DNA of 63,970 nucleotides, the filler included, from Myxococcota bacterium (GTDB lineage: Bacteria > Myxococcota > Myxococcia > Myxococcales > Myxococcaceae), in the NCBI GenBank assembly GCA_049322255.1. It is 4 parts of 4 records of this genome, joined end to end, with 100 filler letters (N's around TTAATTAATTAA, not from the genome) between each part and the next. Parts side by side here need not be neighbours in the genome. Positions count along the whole stretch, not along the records: positions 55,004 to 63,970 come from JBMORE010000137.1; 3 more parts are not named here. The stretch is one strand, 5' to 3'. The position numbers and the translations under genes are program-made. Below, in pieces: positions 53,533 through 63,756 of the stretch (its first letter is position 1; every line of letters starts with the position of its first letter). The notes under the pieces are model-generated. The model did no database searches. It was not told the DNA's origin and saw only the letters and a list, made by a program, of their open reading frames with translations.

Positions 53533-53592
53533 GGGAACGTCAACTCGTCGAGCCGCTACCCCTCACCCTCGCCCTCTCCCAGAGGGAGAGGG
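53503..53592. repeat. Inverted doublet of BoxC-like repeats supplying both convergent stop codons
   Basis: 53503-53535 forward and 53559-53592 inverted; MFS ends PSPSGRGIG*, NUDIX ends PSPSGRGRG*. Confidence 0.9.
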
Positions 53593-55003: not shown

Positions 55004-57445
55004 AACCTCGCTCCGACGCTGGCGGCCATCGGCACCCAGACGGTGGCGGAGGGCGCCCAGCTCACCTTCACCGTGTCGGCCACCGACCCCAACACGGGTG
55101 ACGTGATGACCTACTCGGCCAGCCCCATTCCCTCGGGGGCGACCTTCGACCCCGCCACCGGCACCTTCACCTGGACGCCGAATTACACCCAGGCGGGCTC
55201 GTACACCGTGACCTTCACCGCCACCGACAACGGCGTTCCTGCTTTGAGCGACTCCAAGCAGGGGGTCATCACCGTCACCAACGTGAACAACGCGCCGATT
55301 CTCGCCTTCATCGGCAACAAGGCGGTGGCGGAGGGAGCCAACCTCACCTTCGTGGTGAGCGCGAACGACCCCAACGGAGACACCGTCACCCTCGCCGCCG
55401 CTCCGCTTCCCAACAACGCGAGCTTCAGCCCCTCCACCGGGACTTTCACCTTCAATCCGGCCTTCGGCCAAGCGGGCACCTACTCGGTGACCTTCACCGC
55501 CACCGACAACGGCAGCCCGCAGATGAGCGACAACGAGACCATCTCCATCGTGGTCGGCGCGGTGAATCGCGCTCCGACGCTGGCCAACCCCGGCTTCCAG
55601 ACCATTGGCGAGGCCGCGACCTTGGCCTTCAACCTCTCCGCTTCGGACCCCGACGGAAACGGGCTCACCTACAGCGCGACGGGACTTCCCACGGGGGCGA
55701 CGCTGAACGCCGCGACGGGCGCATTCTCCTGGACCCCGACCTATCTGCAGGCCGGCTCGTACCAGGTGACCTTCATCGTCACCGATGACGGAGCCCCCAA
55801 CCTCTCCGCCCAGCAGTCGACGACCATCACCGTCAACAACACCAACCGCGCCCCGGTCATCTCGCCCATCGCCAATATCTCCTCGCCCGAGGGGACGGCG
55901 ATCAGCTTCACCGTCTCGGCGTCGGACCCCGACTTGGATGGGGTGACGTTGTCGGCTTCGTCTCTGCCCGCGGGAGCGACCTTCAACCCCTCGACGGGGG
56001 TGTTCAGCTGGACGCCGACCTACTCCCAGTCGGGCACGTACTCGCCCACCTTCACCGCCACCGATGACTACAATCCGACGGCTTCGTCGAACGCGACCCC
56101 GACCTTGACCATCAACAACGTGCCGCTAACGGTGGTGACAGCGGTGTCCCCGAACCGGGGGCCGAGCACGGGGAATACCACGGTGGTGGTGACGGCTCCG
56201 GGGGTGAACACCGGAGCGACGGTGACCGTGAACGCGCTGTCCGCCACGGTACAGTCGGTCGACGAAGCTGCGGGCACGGTCACCATCAGGACCCCTGCCT
56301 CCTTGGGTACCGCTGCCCTGGTCGACGTCGTGGTCACCAACCCTGACACGAGCACGGCCACGGGCTCGAACATCTTCCGGTACTTCTACGGGCAGGTGAC
56401 TATGACCGGCTCGACGTATGGAGCGCCATGGGGGGTGGGCGGAGTCGCGCTCGCTGATATGGACCTCGACCTAGATCTGGACGTAGTGATCTCGGAGCAC
56501 CGCTGCGGTACGCGAGTTCAGGTTCGTTACAACGATGGTTCTGGAGATTTTCCCACCGCGAGCGCCGATTTCGATCCCGGCTTCGGCGGGTGCAACACCA
56601 ACAAGGTGACGACGGGGGATCTCGACGGAGATGGTCGTCCAGACATCATTCTCCCCCAACGCTGGGGGAACAACGTTCGGGTCATCCGCAATCCTTCGAC
56701 GGGTTTGGTGATGCTCTCGGCGGTAAACGTAGGCATTCAGAACAAGGGCGAGCCGGTGGTGGGCGATTTCGATGAAGACGGCAGGCTGGACGTCTTCTTC
56801 CTCGCAGGAAATGGCTCCGTCGCCTTCGCGAAAGGCGCCGGAGATGGAACCTTCTCAACCATCACGCAATGGGCCACGGGCCTGAACCGAGTAGGCCACG
56901 CCCGCGCGGTGGATATCGATGGTGATGGGAACCTCGATTTGGTCGGCAAGGGATACTGGGACAGGGTTACCAGCGTTCTCTATGGCGACGGGGCCGGCAA
57001 CTTCACCACCTACAACTACACTGCCAACATCGGTGGATGCCGCGATGCCCTCGAAGTCGCGGACAACGACCTCGATGGCGACATCGATATCTATGGCCTG
57101 ACGGGATGCGGGAATCCTGGGTATGTGTGGCGCAATAACGGCGACCGCAACTTCACCCAAGTGGACGTCTCCAGCGTCAATAACGATAGCCGGGAAGCCA
57201 GAAGGTTCGACGTCGATCGAGATGGCACCCCCGATACGTTCGTCAGCGCGCGCTGCAATAGCAATACACTGACCTTGAGCCGTGGCCAGGGTTGGCCCGG
57301 AACGATTTCAGCGTCAACGGCGTATTTGGGCTACTGCACCCGCACTGCCGCCATCGGCGACATCAATGGGGATGGCAAGGAGGACATCGTGGGAGGTGCA
57401 GGCGGGGGCGGGGTGCTGCAACGGTGGATCGTCACGTCTCAATGA
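55004..57445 (+). CDS. Large surface protein (5'-truncated): tandem Ig/cadherin-like repeats, IPT/TIG domain, FG-GAP propeller
   Basis: Four NxAP...EG...SAxDP...LPxGATF...FxWTP repeats; VSPNRGPSTG; multiple GDxDGDGxxD repeats. Confidence 0.88.
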   Translation, partial: NLAPTLAAIGTQTVAEGAQLTFTVSATDPNTGDVMTYSASPIPSGATFDPATGTFTWTPNYTQAGSYTVTFTATDNGVPALSDSKQGVITVTNVNNAPILAFIGNKAVAEGANLTFVVSANDPNGDTVTLAAAPLPNNASFSPSTGTFTFNPAFGQAGTYSVTFTATDNGSPQMSDNETISIVVGAVNRAPTLANPGFQTIGEAATLAFNLSASDPDGNGLTYSATGLPTGATLNAATGAFSWTPTYLQAGSYQVTFIVTDDGAPNLSAQQSTTITVNNTNRAPVISPIANISSPEGTAISFTVSASDPDLDGVTLSASSLPAGATFNPSTGVFSWTPTYSQSGTYSPTFTATDDYNPTASSNATPTLTINNVPLTVVTAVSPNRGPSTGNTTVVVTAPGVNTGATVTVNALSATVQSVDEAAGTVTIRTPASLGTAALVDVVVTNPDTSTATGSNIFRYFYGQVTMTGSTYGAPWGVGGVALADMDLDLDLDVVISEHRCGTRVQVRYNDGSGDFPTASADFDPGFGGCNTNKVTTGDLDGDGRPDIILPQRWGNNVRVIRNPSTGLVMLSAVNVGIQNKGEPVVGDFDEDGRLDVFFLAGNGSVAFAKGAGDGTFSTITQWATGLNRVGHARAVDIDGDGNLDLVGKGYWDRVTSVLYGDGAGNFTTYNYTANIGGCRDALEVADNDLDGDIDIYGLTGCGNPGYVWRNNGDRNFTQVDVSSVNNDSREARRFDVDRDGTPDTFVSARCNSNTLTLSRGQGWPGTISASTAYLGYCTRTAAIGDINGDGKEDIVGGAGGGGVLQRWIVTSQ

Positions 57446-57527: not shown

Positions 57528-58424
57528 ATGACGAAAGCTTCTTCCTTTCGCGTGGCCGCCTTTCTTTTGTGGGTCGCGCAGGCCCTCGCCTGCCAGTCAC
57601 CTTCCAAACCCCGGCCGGTCGCCGTCCCTGAAGGCATTCAAATTCCGGTCGAGATAGACGGGAAAGAAGCCAGCCCGCTCAGTACCCAGCAGCTGCGAGG
57701 CATCGCTCCGGACTATGTCGCCGGAGATCGCTTCGCCTGGCGGCTGGGGGCCCTTCTGGGTCCCTCGTACACCCGGCCTGACTCCGTCCTCGAGGTGGAG
57801 CAGGCGGACGGGGTGAAGCTGCTCTTCACCCGCCCGGCGGAGAAAATCGACGGCCAGGAGCCGGTGCTGGCGCTCAACCGGCGGGGAGACGTGCTGGTCG
57901 CATTGATGAAGCCAGACAACCCCTTCCCCTCGTTCCACGGGCGCGGCGGCAACCGGGGACGAGAAGGAGATCCCTCCACCCGCATCCACGGCATCAAGCG
58001 AATTCGCTTGTTCCTCCTCCCGCGCGGAACCGAAGGCAGCGCCGAAGGAAAGCCAAAGCTCGCTCCGCCGGTGAAAGTGGTGGTGAAAGGGCGGCCGGAG
58101 ACGACCTGGACGCAGGAGGACTTCGACGAGGTGGAGCCCTTGGAAGTGATGAGCGAGTCCGGAGACGAGGAGCAGGAGGCCTGGCCGGTTCGTCCGCTCG
58201 CGGAGCAGCTCATCGGTCCGAAGGCCAGACTCGTCCGCGTCCGCGGCGAGAACGGTCACATGCTGGAGATAAAGCCCGAAGAGTGGCGCCAGCAGGAAAA
58301 GATTCCGGTCTTGAGGCTCAACCGCCGGGGCTTGATCAAGTTCCAGTGGGTGAGCGCCTCGAAGGAAGTGACGCCCAAAGACGAGGGGCTCCGCGGCGTC
58401 TCTCAGCTCGACTTCGAGCTTTGA
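57528..58424 (+). CDS. Lipoprotein with two internal repeats, possibly a sulfite-oxidase-like Moco-binding fold
   Basis: ALAC lipobox; both halves share AW-x-L/V-xx-L, V...G and PVLxLNRRG; fold call is tentative. Confidence 0.7.
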   Translation: MTKASSFRVAAFLLWVAQALACQSPSKPRPVAVPEGIQIPVEIDGKEASPLSTQQLRGIAPDYVAGDRFAWRLGALLGPSYTRPDSVLEVEQADGVKLLFTRPAEKIDGQEPVLALNRRGDVLVALMKPDNPFPSFHGRGGNRGREGDPSTRIHGIKRIRLFLLPRGTEGSAEGKPKLAPPVKVVVKGRPETTWTQEDFDEVEPLEVMSESGDEEQEAWPVRPLAEQLIGPKARLVRVRGENGHMLEIKPEEWRQQEKIPVLRLNRRGLIKFQWVSASKEVTPKDEGLRGVSQLDFEL

Positions 58425-58451
58425 ACCTGTGGTAGAGGTCGTCCCCTCTTG

Positions 58452-59729
58452 ATGGACCCAGGTCACGGATCAGCCGCTGCGTCGCCGAGCGAACGCGTGG
58501 ACGCGCGCCTGCGGGTCGTCTACCTCTTGGCCAGCGCGGTGGGGGTTTTCTTCCTTCGTACCCCCTGGCAGGTCACGGCGCTCCTGGGGCTTCAGCTACT
58601 GCTCTGGTTCCTCGTCCGCCTTCCTCTGCGGCGGCTGGTTCGCCAGACGCTCAAACTGTGGGGGTTCGGCCTCCTCGTGGTGAGCTCCTACGCCCTGACC
58701 GCTGACGACCCGAGCCTCGACCGCTGGGTACAGCTCCCTCTCTTCGGCGTGCACCTGTCGCTCAACATCTCCGGTGCCGGAGTGGGCGGGCTGATGGTGC
58801 TGCGTTTGGTCACCGTGGTGCTCGCCTCGTCGGTTGCGCGCGCGGGGAATGTCCGAGCCCTCGCGCTCGGGCTGAGCCAGCTTCGGGTGCCGCGGAGTTT
58901 TTCGGCCCCACTCGACGCTGTTCTTTCTCTAACGGGGGAAGACGAAGACCACCCTCTCCCTCGGGGAGAGGGCAGGGGTGAGGGGAGAGAGAGCGGCGGT
59001 GGCCGAGGCAACGGTGGCGGAAGGAAGGCCAAGGGCAGCTTCTGGGCAGCGCTCCAGCGGGTGAGCCAAGGCGACGTGAGCGCCATCACCGACAAGCTCG
59101 AGCGGCAGATTGGCCGGGCGGAGAAGCATTTGCATGAGTCGAGTGCTGACGCCCCTCACCCCAACGCTCTCCCAGAGGGAGAGGGGGCGCGGCGCGACTG
59201 GGCGGTCATCGCCGGGGTGGCGGCGAGCATGCTCGGCATCCGCGCGCTGAAAATCCTCCCCAGCATTCCCTTCGCTCCCGGCCACAAGCTGGTGCTCCTC
59301 ACCCCGCTGTACGTGGTGGCGTCGATGCAGACCAAGGGGCGCTGGGGCGGCACCCTCACCGGGCTCACCATGGGCACGGTGGCCTTCCTCCTCGGAGACG
59401 GGCGCTACGGGGTGTTCGAGATTCTCAAGCACCTGGTCCCCGGCGTGCTGTGCGACATCTTCTTGCCCCTCTTGCCGGGAGCGGGACGAAAGCTGGGCGG
59501 CCTGGGCTGGTCGCTCTTCGGGGGCCTCGTCGCCGCCGGGCGCTTCGCCACCATCCTCGCCATCACCTTCGTGCTTCAAACCCCCGCGGTGGCCTGGGCC
59601 ATTCTTCTCCCTGGGCTCACCGTGCACATGACGTTTGGCCTGTTGTCTGGGTACATCACCGCTCATCTCGTCAAGGCCGTAGAAGCGGCGGCCGCGCGCC
59701 GGGGGAGCATGGACAAGGAAGCAGCATGA
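58452..59729 (+). CDS. Membrane protein: EcfT/CbiQ-like N-terminus fused to an ECF S-component-like C-terminus
   Basis: RVDARLR...LRLVTV...LALGLSQLRVP (EcfT-like); C-terminal 5-6 TMs with PGH, GGTLTG, PGVLCD (S-component-like). Confidence 0.7.
   Translation: MDPGHGSAAASPSERVDARLRVVYLLASAVGVFFLRTPWQVTALLGLQLLLWFLVRLPLRRLVRQTLKLWGFGLLVVSSYALTADDPSLDRWVQLPLFGVHLSLNISGAGVGGLMVLRLVTVVLASSVARAGNVRALALGLSQLRVPRSFSAPLDAVLSLTGEDEDHPLPRGEGRGEGRESGGGRGNGGGRKAKGSFWAALQRVSQGDVSAITDKLERQIGRAEKHLHESSADAPHPNALPEGEGARRDWAVIAGVAASMLGIRALKILPSIPFAPGHKLVLLTPLYVVASMQTKGRWGGTLTGLTMGTVAFLLGDGRYGVFEILKHLVPGVLCDIFLPLLPGAGRKLGGLGWSLFGGLVAAGRFATILAITFVLQTPAVAWAILLPGLTVHMTFGLLSGYITAHLVKAVEAAAARRGSMDKEAA
58952..58985 (+). 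repeat. BoxC-like repeat inserted in frame in the ECF-like gene
   Basis: CCCTCTCCCTCGGGGAGAGGGCAGGGGTGAGGGG encodes PLPRGEGRGEG. Confidence 0.85.
59152..59186 (-). repeat. BoxC-like repeat (inverted) in frame in the ECF-like gene
   Basis: CCCCTCACCCCAACGCTCTCCCAGAGGGAGAGGGG encodes PHPNALPEGEG. Confidence 0.85.
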
Positions 59730-60565
59730 GCAGCTTTGCCAGCGGAGACGGGCGGCTCCACGTGGTCTCGCCCCTGATGAAGGAGTCTTTGGTCAATCGC
59801 CACGTCGCCGCCTCGACTCAGGTGGACCGAGAGCGGGCGATTCTCCCCGACGTCGTCTTGGTGGGCATCGGCGGTCAGTCCATCTTCGACCTCGGAAAGC
59901 AGGCCCTGCTGCCGCTGGTGGAGGAGATCGCCGCCGCCCGCGGTCGCCACCGCCTCTTGATGGGCGTGGGCGGAGGCACCCGGGTGCGCCACACCGTCTC
60001 CATCGCCCTGGACTTGGGGCTTCCCACTGGAGGGGTAGCGCAGCTGGTGGGCGCGATGGAGGAAGCCAACGCGGTGCTGCTCAACGCGCTCTTGGCCAAG
60101 CACGGCTCCATCGTGATGCAGCGGGAGCACTTCTGGGAGCTGCCCCTCTACCTGAACAGCGGAATGCTCCCCATCGTCATCAGCATTCCGCCCTACCACT
60201 TCTGGGAGCCCCCTCCGGAAGGAGGCCCCTTGCCCACCCACGGCTCGGACTTCGGCCTCTTCACCCACGCCGAAGTGCTAGGGATGCGCAAGGTCATCTT
60301 CGTCAAGGACGTCGACGGGCTCTACACCGCCGACCCCAAGCGCCACCCGGACGCGAAGCTCATTCGCCGCACCACCCTGGCCGAGCTTCTCCACCGGCTG
60401 CCCGAGGAGCTACCGCTGGACAAGGCTCTCTTCGCGGCCTGGCAGCACGCTCGTCATGTGCAAAAGGTGCAGCTGGTCAATGGCCTCAAAGCTGGTGAGC
60501 TCACCCGCGCGCTCGCCGGCGAGGACGTTGGAACCCTCATCGAGAAGGAGAGCGCCCATGCTTGA
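59726..60565 (+). CDS. mosA: Molybdenum storage protein alpha-like subunit (amino-acid-kinase fold)
   Basis: HVVSPL, IGG, LPLVEE, LDLGLP, PPYH, DVDGLYTADP, ARHVQKVQLVNGL, GEDVGTLI match Azotobacter MosA as recalled. Confidence 0.8.
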   Translation: MSSFASGDGRLHVVSPLMKESLVNRHVAASTQVDRERAILPDVVLVGIGGQSIFDLGKQALLPLVEEIAAARGRHRLLMGVGGGTRVRHTVSIALDLGLPTGGVAQLVGAMEEANAVLLNALLAKHGSIVMQREHFWELPLYLNSGMLPIVISIPPYHFWEPPPEGGPLPTHGSDFGLFTHAEVLGMRKVIFVKDVDGLYTADPKRHPDAKLIRRTTLAELLHRLPEELPLDKALFAAWQHARHVQKVQLVNGLKAGELTRALAGEDVGTLIEKESAHA

Positions 60566-61361
60566 GCGGCGAACCATCGACAGTCCGCTGGCCGGAGCGA
60601 CGCTGACCGGCGCGGCCGTCGCTGGCATCGACTACCAGCCGGTGGCGATGATGCCCGAGGTGAAGGTCATCAAGGTGGGTGGCCAGTCGGTGATGGACCG
60701 GGGCCGCTCGGCGCTCTTCCCGGTGCTCGACGAGCTGGTTTCCCTCAAGGACAAGCACCAGCTCCTCTTGTGCTGCGGGGGAGGAACGCGCGCGCGCCAC
60801 ATCTACTCTGTGGCCGCAGACCTGGAGATGCCCACCGGGCTGCTCGCCGCGCTGGGAGGCTACGTGCCACGGCAGAACGCGCGCATGCTGCAGATGCTCC
60901 TGGCCAAGCACGGAGGCGTCTTCATTCTTCACGACGACTTCGAGAAGCTGCCGATGTACTTCCGCGTCGGGTGCATTCCCATCATGACCGGCATGCCTCC
61001 TTTCGGTTACTGGGAGAAGCCGGGCGAGAACGGCCAAATCCCCGCGCACCGCACCGACGCCGGGGTGTTCCTCTCCGCCGAGGTGCTCGGAGCCAAGCGC
61101 GCTTACTTCGTCAAAGACGAAGACGGCCTCCATACCGACGACCCGAAGAAAAACCCCTCGGCGAAGCTGATTCCCCGCATCGGCGCCAAGGAGCTGATGA
61201 AAAAGAATCTGCCCGACCTGGTCGTCGAGCGGGTGGTCATCGAGTACCTGACGCGTTCCCGCTTCTGCCGTGAGCTGCAAATCGTCAACGGGCTGAAGAA
61301 AGGAATGCTCACCCGCGCGCTCGAGGGAGAGGATGTCGGCACCGTCATCTACCAGGACTGA
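60558..61361 (+). CDS. mosB: Molybdenum storage protein beta-like subunit
   Basis: VIKVGGQSVMDRGR, GTRARH, QNARML, GMPP, IPAHRTDAG, FVKDEDGL match MosB as recalled. Confidence 0.85.
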   Translation: MLERRTIDSPLAGATLTGAAVAGIDYQPVAMMPEVKVIKVGGQSVMDRGRSALFPVLDELVSLKDKHQLLLCCGGGTRARHIYSVAADLEMPTGLLAALGGYVPRQNARMLQMLLAKHGGVFILHDDFEKLPMYFRVGCIPIMTGMPPFGYWEKPGENGQIPAHRTDAGVFLSAEVLGAKRAYFVKDEDGLHTDDPKKNPSAKLIPRIGAKELMKKNLPDLVVERVVIEYLTRSRFCRELQIVNGLKKGMLTRALEGEDVGTVIYQD

Positions 61362-61367
61362 CGCCAG

Positions 61368-61403
61368 CCCCCTCTCCCTTTGGGAGAGGGAGGGGGTGAG
61401 GGG
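61368..61403 (+). repeat. BoxC-like repeat overlapping the probable modA start
   Basis: CCCCCTCTCCCTTTGGGAGAGGGAGGGGGTGAGGGG; its GTG at 61396 is in the modA frame. Confidence 0.85.
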
Positions 61404-62157
61404 CGTCAATCTTCCCTTCCTCCTCGCCATGCTCTTTTTGGCCGGCTGCGCGCGCGAGGAGAGCGCCCACAAAGAGCTGGTCATCGCCGCCGCCGCGAGC
61501 CTGCGGCCGGTGATGCCCCTTCTGGCGGAACGGTTTCGCCAAAAGCAGCCGGGTGAAGAGGTGCTCGTCACCTACGGAGCCTCGGGAGATTTGCGCCGGC
61601 AGGTGGAGCTGGGAGCGCCCATCGACGCGGTGTTCTTCGCCGCCGCCGAGCCCGTCGACCGGCTCGACCAAGCGGGGCTCCTCGATGCGAGCACGCGCAG
61701 AGTCGTCGCCACCAACGAGCTGGTGCTCATCGGCCCCAAGGAAGCGCCCCCGGTGACTTTCGCCGAGCTCTCCACCCTCGGAAAAGAAGCGAAGCTGGCC
61801 ATCGGCGAGCCGGCGGCGGTGCCGGCGGGACAATATGCCCGTGAGGCGCTGCGTACCCTCGGAAGTTGGGACGCCGTACAGCCCCACCTCGTTTTCGGCG
61901 GCGACGTGGCAGGCGTGCTTTCCTACGCCCGCCGCGGGGAGGTGCGCGCAGCCATCGTCTACCGCACCGAGGTGGCGGGCTTCGCCGACGTCGCCATCTA
62001 CGACGTCGCGCAGACGGCCTGGTCCCCGCGCCCCGAGGTGGTGGCCGCCGTCACCCGGCACGGGCAGCGTTCTTTCCGCGCCAAGGCGTTCCTCGATTTC
62101 ACCTCCTCCGCCGAAGGTCAAAAGGCCTTCCTCGCGAAGGGGTTTGGCTCGCCCTAA
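61396..62157 (+). CDS. modA: Molybdate ABC transporter substrate-binding lipoprotein
   Basis: LAGC lipobox, AAAASL, YGASGDL, GAPID, VPAGQYA. Confidence 0.93.
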   Translation: MRGVNLPFLLAMLFLAGCAREESAHKELVIAAAASLRPVMPLLAERFRQKQPGEEVLVTYGASGDLRRQVELGAPIDAVFFAAAEPVDRLDQAGLLDASTRRVVATNELVLIGPKEAPPVTFAELSTLGKEAKLAIGEPAAVPAGQYAREALRTLGSWDAVQPHLVFGGDVAGVLSYARRGEVRAAIVYRTEVAGFADVAIYDVAQTAWSPRPEVVAAVTRHGQRSFRAKAFLDFTSSAEGQKAFLAKGFGSP

Positions 62158-62161
62158 CGAA

Positions 62162-62830
62162 GTGGAGTCTTCACCGACATTCCCGATGGTCTTGAGCCTG
62201 TGGGTGGCCCTGCTGGCTTTGGTGGTCATCACCCCGCCCGGCATCGCCCTCGCGCTGGTGCAGGCCCGCCGGCACTACCGACTGAAAACCCTGGTCGAGT
62301 TTTTGGTCCTCTTGCCGATGATTCTGCCTCCCACCGTCGTCGGCTTCTTTCTCGTCTTCCTGCTCGGGCGCAAAGGAGCGCTCGGCCAACTTCTCGAGTC
62401 GGGCCTGGGGCTTCGGCTCATCTTCACCCCCGGCGCGGCGGTGGTGGCCTCCTGCGTGGTGTCTTTCCCCATCGTCGTCCGCACCGCCCAAGCCGCGTTC
62501 GAGGCGGTGCCCGTGGAGCTGGAAGAGGTCGGCCGCTCGATGGGCCTGGGGCCGCTCAAGACTTTTTTCCGGGTGACGCTGCCGATGGCTTGGCGCGGGG
62601 TGGTGGCGGCGCTGGTGCTGGCCTTCGCCCGTGCCATCGCCGAGTTCGGCGCCACCCTGATGTTCGCCGGCAACATCCCCGGAAGAACCAACACCATGCC
62701 GCTGGAGATTTTCGCCGCCTACCAGGCCGGAGATGATGCACGCGCGCTCAGCTACGTGCTGGTGATGACGGGTATCGCCGTCGCAGTGGTGCTGGTCACC
62801 TCGCGGCTGGGCCGCCGGAGAGCAGCGTGA
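62162..62830 (+). CDS. modB: Molybdate ABC transporter permease
   Basis: LPMILPPTVVGF, FARAIAEFGAT, GNIPGRTNTMP; start GTG 62162 or ATG 62186. Confidence 0.94.
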   Translation: MESSPTFPMVLSLWVALLALVVITPPGIALALVQARRHYRLKTLVEFLVLLPMILPPTVVGFFLVFLLGRKGALGQLLESGLGLRLIFTPGAAVVASCVVSFPIVVRTAQAAFEAVPVELEEVGRSMGLGPLKTFFRVTLPMAWRGVVAALVLAFARAIAEFGATLMFAGNIPGRTNTMPLEIFAAYQAGDDARALSYVLVMTGIAVAVVLVTSRLGRRRAA

Positions 62831-63756
62831 GCGCCACCTCGGAGCGCGCCTTGGACGCCCAGTTTCGCCTCCGGGTGGGGCGGGGGCCGACCGCTTTCAA
62901 CCTCGACATCGCGCTGGCGCTTCCGCGCGGCCTCCTCGTGCTCTTCGGACCCTCGGGCAGCGGCAAGTCCCTCACTTTGCGCGCGCTGGGAGGGCTTTTG
63001 CGGCCAGAGGCGGGTTTCATCCGCGTCGGTGGGCGGACGCTGTTCGACTCCGAAGCCTCCTGCGACGTCCCGGTGCACCGTCGGCACATGGGCTACGTGC
63101 CGCAGCACCACGCGCTGTTTCCCTTTCTCGACGTCGCGGCCAACGTGGCCTTCGGAGCCGAGGGCAGCGCGCGGGGCCGACAGTTGGTGGAGACGTTGAT
63201 GGCCGAGCTGGGCCTTACCCCTCTGGCCGGCGCCTTCCCCCACTCCCTGTCCGGGGGAGAGCGGCAGCGGGTGGCCCTCGCCCGGGCGCTGGCGACGGAG
63301 CCTCGGCTGCTCTTGCTCGACGAGCCTTTTGCCTCCCTCGACCGCGGGGGAAGGCAGGCGCTGTGGCAGACCCTGCGCCAGGAGCTCTTGCGGCGAAACG
63401 TCTCCGCCGTCTTTGTCACCCATGACCCCGAGGAGGCGCTGGCGCTGGGAGACATCTTGGTGCGGCTCGACCGCGGCCGTGTCACCGGTGTCGGCGCGCC
63501 CAAGGCGTTGTTGAGCTCGCCTTACGACGCGGTGCTCCTTCGAGGCCGAGCCAAAGGTTCGCCGCGTCCGCTGGGGGACGCGCGGGCAGAGCTGGCGCTG
63601 GAGGAGGTCTTGCTCCAGGGACCCGCGGAGCTCTTTCACTCAGCCCCCGGCGAGGCCGTACAGCTATCCTTGACCGTGGGCCCCTCAGATTTTCGTGGTG
63701 AAGAAGTTCCTTCGGGCTCCGTCCGTGCCGACAACCCTCACCGGGAGACGCCGTGA
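62827..63756 (+). CDS. modC: Molybdate ABC transporter ATP-binding protein
   Basis: GPSGSGKS, GYVPQHHALFP, LSGGERQR, LLDEPF; shortened C-terminal regulatory region. Confidence 0.9.
   Translation: MSATSERALDAQFRLRVGRGPTAFNLDIALALPRGLLVLFGPSGSGKSLTLRALGGLLRPEAGFIRVGGRTLFDSEASCDVPVHRRHMGYVPQHHALFPFLDVAANVAFGAEGSARGRQLVETLMAELGLTPLAGAFPHSLSGGERQRVALARALATEPRLLLLDEPFASLDRGGRQALWQTLRQELLRRNVSAVFVTHDPEEALALGDILVRLDRGRVTGVGAPKALLSSPYDAVLLRGRAKGSPRPLGDARAELALEEVLLQGPAELFHSAPGEAVQLSLTVGPSDFRGEEVPSGSVRADNPHRETP

Follow-up and report, generated by a model that had tools for sequence, protein, structure and literature searches.

The stretch of DNA analysed here, referred to as the window, comprises 63,970 nucleotides from a Myxococcota bacterium (assembly GCA_049322255.1) and is made up of several contigs strung together. 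It contains an operon of seven open reading frames (ORFs) on the plus strand (57528-63756), which sits whole on a single contig of 8,967 bp; the genome measures 4.85 Mb and is 99.6% complete. The central genes are gene 2 (58449..59729), which encodes a fusion of EcfT with an S component of transporters of the energy-coupling factor (ECF) type and is called T-S below, and two genes for MoSto-family subunits, Mos1 (59726..60565), with a putative alpha-like role, and Mos2 (60558..61361), beta-like and presumed to be the ATP-driven pumping subunit. They are preceded by gene 1 (57528..58424), which encodes an accessory lipoprotein with tandem domains, and followed by genes for the molybdate-binding lipoprotein ModA (61333..62157), the permease ModB (62186..62830) and a ModC-like ATP-binding cassette (ABC) ATPase (62827..63756). 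A preliminary description of the locus counted seven co-directional genes that overlap or lie less than 40 bp apart. ORF calling on the longest starts gives the same picture, with successive spacings of 24 bp (or 72 bp, should the database start at 58497 be correct), -4, -8, -29 (or +34), 28 and -4 bp. Gene 2 may start at 58449, 58452 or 58497, and modA at 61333 or at a GTG at 61396. The identity, folds and genomic linkage of T-S, Mos1 and Mos2 are established here, and these three genes are the conserved core of the system.

The AlphaFold2 model of gene 2 (pLDDT 85.9, pTM 0.84) bears out its first assignment as an EcfT/S fusion. Residues 1-134 match EcfT (5d3m_D, Z 10.1), and residues 231-403 match the S components FolT, PanT and ThiT at Z 11-12, in a range where helical fold matches (below Z 13) need caution. 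Six S components were matched, and the top ten rows were all S components. Foldseek alone gave no match for the model with E below 0.001. The EcfT profile matched gene 2 at E 0.005, a CbiQ match was obtained for 24 of 40 T-S proteins, and weak matches to Trep_Strep, an MptD-type S component, for 4 of the 40. The protein thus comprises the membrane half of EcfT, coupling helices broken by a Gly-rich loop, and a fused six-helix S component. The poly-Gly/Arg loop (58904-59020 in gene 2) breaks the EcfT coupling helix in all aligned homologs, the divergent ones included. Separate T and S genes were considered for divergent relatives and rejected; the seeming breaks in L099 and L127 prove to be a single ORF or a gap within the Gly-rich loop.

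Conservation in T-S was counted over 91 of the 150 listed representatives, restricted to full-length proteins. Most of the polar residues conserved in the S domain are basic, with K/R249 in 90 sequences, K264 in 88, K/R303 in 83, R349 in 82 and K/R252 in 72, beside E308 in 75. They are predicted to lie on the outer half of the domain, a sidedness taken from helix order and not from coordinates, and this arrangement fits an anion. As in known ECF transporters (the folate ECF structures 4huq and 5d3m), a small-xxx-small motif is kept in S helix 1 (A236/G240). T-S differs from these transporters in joining T and S in one chain, in the Gly-rich insert of the coupling region and in its basic pocket.

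A further difference concerns the motor. EcfT docks EcfA ATPases through two ARG motifs, according to the sections of PMC3246461 consulted. The Arg of one ARG-like motif ([AGS]RGD, register by eye) is kept by 51 of 58 close relatives and 39 of 91 distant ones; gene 2 has Gln there. The second ARG motif was found by pattern search in none of the 91 homologs, and the EcfT C-terminus is absent. No EcfA was found at the locus or in the host genome, where the best ECF-ATPase score was 158 against a cut-off of 315; an EcfA-type Q-loop motif occurred in 0 of 34 ABC ORFs. Gene 2 is also the only CbiQ match in this genome, and cbiO was found in none of five relatives. Among 39 related loci with full flanks, 20 contain no ABC ATPase within 9 kb, and the remaining loci contain almost only modC.

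MoSto is known as a soluble molybdenum store of one diazotroph, an (alpha-beta)3 cage that takes in about 100 Mo at the expense of ATP. The preliminary description assigned the two AAK-fold proteins behind T-S to MosAB. In a sequence search of the PDB, Mos1 matched MoSto beta at E 9e-61, alpha at 6e-47 and UMP kinase at 4e-9, and Mos2 gave 7e-70, 2e-46 and 4e-10, respectively; both score better against beta. An identity as UMP kinases was rejected, since MoSto entries (Azotobacter vinelandii; 2ogx, 4f6t, 6gu5, 6ris) match at E 1e-46 to 1e-70 and UMP kinases at about 1e-9. Both proteins are therefore kin of MosA and MosB, as proposed; that they belong to a divergent type had been missed.

Azotobacter residue numbers were carried over via the Azospirillum subunits. 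In the beta subunit, Lys42, Arg83, Met149, Arg168-Thr-Asp and Lys189-Asp are taken here to be the residues of the ATP/molybdate pump. A pump role for beta Lys42 and Met149, and for the alpha N-terminal arm, was reportedly described by Brunle et al. in 2019, and Lys42 is mutated in the MoSto entry 6ris. Mos2 keeps the beta-type residues, with Lys42, which is Lys39 in Mos2, in 79 of 79 homologs and Met149 in 78 of 79, and Arg83, RTD and KD are present. Mos1 lacks them: the Lys (42/45) occurs in 0 of 82 sequences and Met149 in 2 of 82, and GSD stands in place of RTD. Its alpha-like marks are a His at the position of alpha His156 in 82 of 82 sequences and, by alignment, an alpha-type N-terminal arm. 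His114 and His140 are presumably polyoxometalate ligands of the alpha subunit. His156 and Glu129 bind octamolybdate in MoSto, as stated in the excerpted part of PMC4504029. Three of the five alpha cage-ligand sites are changed in Mos1 (His114 to Val/Ile, Glu129 to Gln, His140 to Tyr), and these sites vary likewise in 4-5 of 7 alpha subunits from canonical-order loci.

A Mos tree was built from 39 of 176 rows of an alignment freed of duplicate loci and of Mos fragments shorter than 225 amino acids. The best tree places Mos1 and Mos2 apart from canonical alpha and beta (support 97/94), and a constrained tree in which Mos1 is orthologous to alpha was not rejected (p-AU 0.082). The gene order is also reversed relative to the canonical loci examined. 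Mos1 and Mos2 would thus form a divergent type of MoSto, in which one subunit pumps and the other is structural. Canonical-order (beta-alpha) Mos pairs adjoining modABC also occur in myxobacteria-like genomes (L100, L101, L129-L132), and their alpha subunits likewise lack several of the Azotobacter cage ligands. A lone, long-branch MoSto-like gene at L102:9833-10627 (genome G267) has no partner subunit at its locus and is possibly homo-oligomeric.

Related loci were surveyed through the best 80 of 106 confirmed T-S loci. The label on the best T-S homolog is Myxococcaceae, and the majority of the 80 loci bear myxobacterial labels. In 74 of the 80, Mos1 follows downstream of T-S at no more than 500 bp, some of these genes being incomplete and one a short fragment. 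Three of the other six loci reach a contig edge, one has Mos1 2.1 kb away, and in two the pair lies on the same contig at a distance of 85-108 kb. Among 251 sampled genomes of the phylum that holds most relatives, 15 contain Mos and nine contain T-S, all nine within the 15 (9/15 vs 0/236). The same nesting was seen in a stricter first look at 301 genomes of the host phylum, with Mos in eight and T-S in five (5/8 vs 0/293). Because few genomes of either set carry these genes, the system is rare and patchy. T-S accompanies only the Mos1/Mos2 type and was found at 0 of 8 canonical beta-alpha loci; two Azospirillum plasmid loci with canonical Mos also lack it. Of the Mos genomes without T-S, seven have canonical-order or single Mos, and two (G417, G547) belong to the Mos1/Mos2 type. 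Single-chain T-S::Mos1 fusions (P0166, P0218) and a ModC::T-S fusion (P0213) were found, each as a single-member cluster. Evolutionary distances correlate at 0.60-0.61 between T-S and Mos and at 0.80 between Mos1 and Mos2, as expected from common ancestry, and were not used as evidence. The T-S family extends beyond myxobacteria, with 176 representatives at E below 1e-30 and some Atlas clusters mostly from Pseudomonadota. A plasmid search with two queries returned no T-S match, nor did a first metagenome scan with one single protein as query.

The mod genes are a less constant companion. ModA (TIGR01256, 138.9 vs a cut-off of 62.5) and ModB (TIGR02141, 209.8 vs 182.6) exceed their NCBIfam cut-offs, as the first reading of these genes as ModABC would have it. 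ModC, which follows modB, has TIGR02142 as its best family but scores 185.8, below the cut-off of 285. modA or modB is present at 42 of the 80 loci, and modC lies near T-S in about half.

These observations suggest a model in which T-S, working without an ATPase, captures a molybdenum or tungsten (Mo/W) anion and delivers it to a membrane-docked, ATP-driven cage of the MoSto type. The analysis, drawn from sequences and predicted structures, gives this model about an even chance. The S domain would bind a scarce anion, such as molybdate or tungstate, or a small Mo-containing anion off a chelate, in an outer pocket lined by Lys, Arg and His. The fused EcfT half would hold the S domain and let it topple without a drive from EcfA. 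The cage might then dock on the cytoplasmic helices of T-S, at about residues 115-220, and take over the anion, and ATP hydrolysis in Mos2, as a beta-type pump, could deposit it inside and so pull the flux. ModABC would run in parallel as a conventional importer, gene 1 might serve as an optional binding protein on the periplasmic side that supplies the S domain, and the store would buffer Mo for the ordinary molybdoenzymes of the host, not for nitrogenase.

Several points weigh against this model. One ARG-like motif survives, which leaves room for a borrowed ABC ATPase, and since ModABC imports molybdate in about half of the loci, a second molybdate route looks redundant. The sidedness of the pocket rests on helix order, and the cargo may differ from the Azotobacter clusters given the changed alpha ligands. 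The three fusions are single sequences each and could be lost stop codons. The T-S partner is not obligatory, because G417 and G547 have no T-S match and two genomes have T-S far from Mos. The counts are also not independent, because the genomes are related to one another.

The preliminary description noted that no nif gene lies in the window, which is of little weight because the window is a set of concatenated contigs. The host genome as a whole gave no PF00148 match, and nifD was found in none of the 251 genomes. The molybdoenzymes of the host comprise an FdhF/YdeP-family protein, two proteins of the xanthine-dehydrogenase family and two of the sulfite-oxidase family; no member of the tungsten AFOR family was found in its genome. 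For synthesis of the molybdenum cofactor (Moco), 49 of 50 carriers have moaC, and the host genome has moaA and two moeA genes. Salvage of the cofactor is less likely because the carriers make Moco.

Gene 1 gave no Pfam or NCBIfam match. It had been described as a repeat lipoprotein, and this is upheld by two homologous domains (hhalign 98.4%, E 9e-15) and a lipobox Cys22 invariant in 28 of 28 homologs. There is no other conserved Cys, and thus no Mo-ligating one. In the AlphaFold2 model (pLDDT 87.8), the second domain (residues 180-298) matches PruR (7kp2) with Z 10.3 and a root-mean-square deviation of 3.0 over 115 aligned residues. The next matches are SoxC, 7rkb (Z 9.0), SorT, nitrate reductase and sulfite oxidase, with unrelated rows at Z 5 or lower. 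Foldseek and Atlas point weakly in the same PruR/SUOX direction. PruR, known from Agrobacterium, Vibrio and Klebsiella, is a pterin-binding protein with a SUOX fold devoid of Cys, according to the available extracts of PMC11194511. Gene 1 shares with it, and with the SUOX Moco domains, an exported, Cys-less degenerate fold; it differs as a lipid-anchored tandem of two domains, with about 15% identity, no match at the sequence level and conserved motifs rich in Arg, namely NRRG in each domain and FHGRGGNRGR in the first. Its neighbours are T-S, Mos and Mod, not a DcpA-type membrane cyclase or kinase. By eye, and without a residue-level register, the pterin-stacking Tyr/Trp of PruR have no conserved counterpart in the gene 1 alignment, and its Asn and PW motif likewise look unconserved.

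Gene 1 occurs at 17 of the 80 T-S loci, before T-S or after modC. Seventeen metagenome loci were found from gene 1 itself, ten with T-S and twelve with some gene of the module, and two of them seem to repeat the DNA of loci recorded before. In the 251 genomes, seven of eight gene 1 matches lie in Mos genomes, and the eighth adjoins Mos fragments and modAB. Both leading genes therefore travel with Mos and Mod in other genomes. The role in uptake first proposed for gene 1 finds some backing in its pterin/Moco-binding type of fold and its linkage to the system, but the gene is not part of the core; from its distribution it is an optional member.

In many relatives the system is larger. Of 52 loci with enough flank, 37 have three extra genes before T-S, encoding an exported tandem-repeat protein without a Pfam match (c1), a surface protein of about 600 amino acids with a C-terminal sorting-like tail, and a di-haem c-type cytochrome lipoprotein (for example L028:5853-9895; also L030, L016, L134, L141 and others). 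A TonB-dependent receptor is present at 22 of the 52. c1 occurs in eight of the 251 genomes, all of the Mos1/Mos2 type. Its alignment with gene 1 is in register but weak (hhalign 10-14%, E 0.002-0.003) and serves as a lead only. The window holds a reduced version of the module, because c1 and the surface protein are absent from the host genome. A second exported repeat protein, c2, with conserved Cys-Pro repeats and no Pfam match, accompanies T-S at 22 of 52 loci (L028:15860-16831, L079:2348-3397 and others) and is not found in the host genome. A bolder proposal, put forward only tentatively and rather doubtful as it stands, is that an ECF-derived transporter swapped its ABC motor for a docked MoSto-type pump, which ties uptake directly to ATP-driven storage as mineral. 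For most relatives this would be the inner end of a longer pathway that mines Mo/W off chelates, cofactor or minerals through the TonB receptor, SUOX-fold binders, the surface protein and the di-haem cytochrome c.

Other explanations have been weighed for the same genes. That no motor was found for T-S, and that ModABC often stands beside it, would also suit a role as sensor, anchor or gate instead of importer: T-S could signal the Mo level outside, or anchor the cage, and govern how it is loaded or emptied, or it could expel excess Mo/W. The S-component fold recurs as a receptor domain in other proteins, as described in a portion of PMC11109136, and PruR-fold proteins act as periplasmic signalling partners of membrane proteins, as indicated in the extracts of PMC11194511. 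However, T-S keeps the EcfT scaffold and the small-xxx-small motif, both absent from those receptors in the same portion of PMC11109136, and the TonB-dependent receptors point to uptake. This explanation is judged unlikely. Slightly less credit is given to salvage, in which gene 1 (and c1 of relatives) would bind Moco or a pterin, T-S would import it and the Mo would end in the cage. The closest folds of gene 1, the vitamin-like molecules (including folate) carried by ECF S components, a basic pocket suited to a phosphorylated cofactor, and TonB receptors implying a large cargo are all in keeping with it. The capacity of the carriers to make Moco, the low frequency of gene 1 and the apparent lack, by eye, of conserved counterparts of the PruR stacking residues argue otherwise, and MoSto handles molybdate, not cofactor, in the passages of PMC6448029 consulted. 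Moco salvaged from prey, the driver suggested in the preliminary description, is thus not favoured.

It is improbable that T-S is an ordinary ATP-driven transporter borrowing ModC or another ABC ATPase, with Mos as a mere neighbour in a Mo regulon. The ARG-like motif, the ModC::T-S fusion and the modC genes near T-S in about half of the loci speak for such borrowing. The 20 of 39 full-flank loci devoid of an ABC ATPase contrast with a Mos1 adjacency of 74/80, and T-S was never found with canonical Mos. A marginally smaller chance still is given to a loss of metal storage, with Mos1/Mos2 acting as a kinase that phosphorylates, and so traps, an organic compound brought in by the S domain. Facilitated entry followed by trapping would account for the absent motor; Mos2 has an AAK fold with an intact ATP site, and three of five alpha cage ligands are changed. 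Nevertheless, MoSto is closer than any kinase by 50 orders of magnitude, the MoSto-specific Met149, His156 and N-terminal arm are kept, and mod genes stand alongside in 42 of the 80 loci.

Delivery by T-S to a docked MoSto-type cage would differ from what is known of both parts. To our knowledge, ECF scaffolds work only with EcfA ATPases, and MoSto is treated as a soluble store in the part of PMC6448029 available. A literature search, in which subscription journals were thinly covered and supplements were outside the scope, yielded no description of an ECF-type partner of MoSto and no Mo substrate reported for ECF transporters. MosAB in a non-diazotroph was already noted for Nitrotoga, as far as the accessible text of bioRxiv 10.1101/317552 goes. 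The preliminary description missed this precedent, the lack of an EcfA motor in the fusion and the divergence of the Mos pair. Compared with the Azotobacter protein, the pair described here has a host without nitrogenase and a conserved membrane partner absent at canonical loci. The T-S/Mos pairing is conserved across myxobacteria-like genomes and may pass Mo across the membrane straight to the store. A motor-less T-S tied to a divergent MoSto in non-diazotrophs could offer a three-gene case, testable in E. coli, of a new way of energising S components. It bears on the loading of a storage cage in vivo and on the Mo supply of soil and freshwater bacteria when molybdate is scarce or chelated.

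Further features of the window are minor. An Rfam scan gave no riboswitch: its sole match in the window was a tRNA, and four related loci had none. A promoter and terminator scan gave nothing above chance. An 800-amino-acid protein with He_PIG/Ig repeats and FG-GAP (55043-57445), cut by the contig start, ends 82 bp upstream of gene 1 and is not a recurrent neighbour among relatives. The genome contains 202 copies of a GC-rich palindromic repeat, which is inserted into coding regions without breaking the reading frame. In the window it occurs at 53572-53592, within the Gly-rich loop of gene 2 (58952..58972, in frame, no strand assigned) and at the head of modA (61370-61390), with another copy recognised by eye near 59154-59188. 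It plays no part in the mechanism. Its presence inside gene 2 and at the head of modA indicates that the operon contig is native to this genome.

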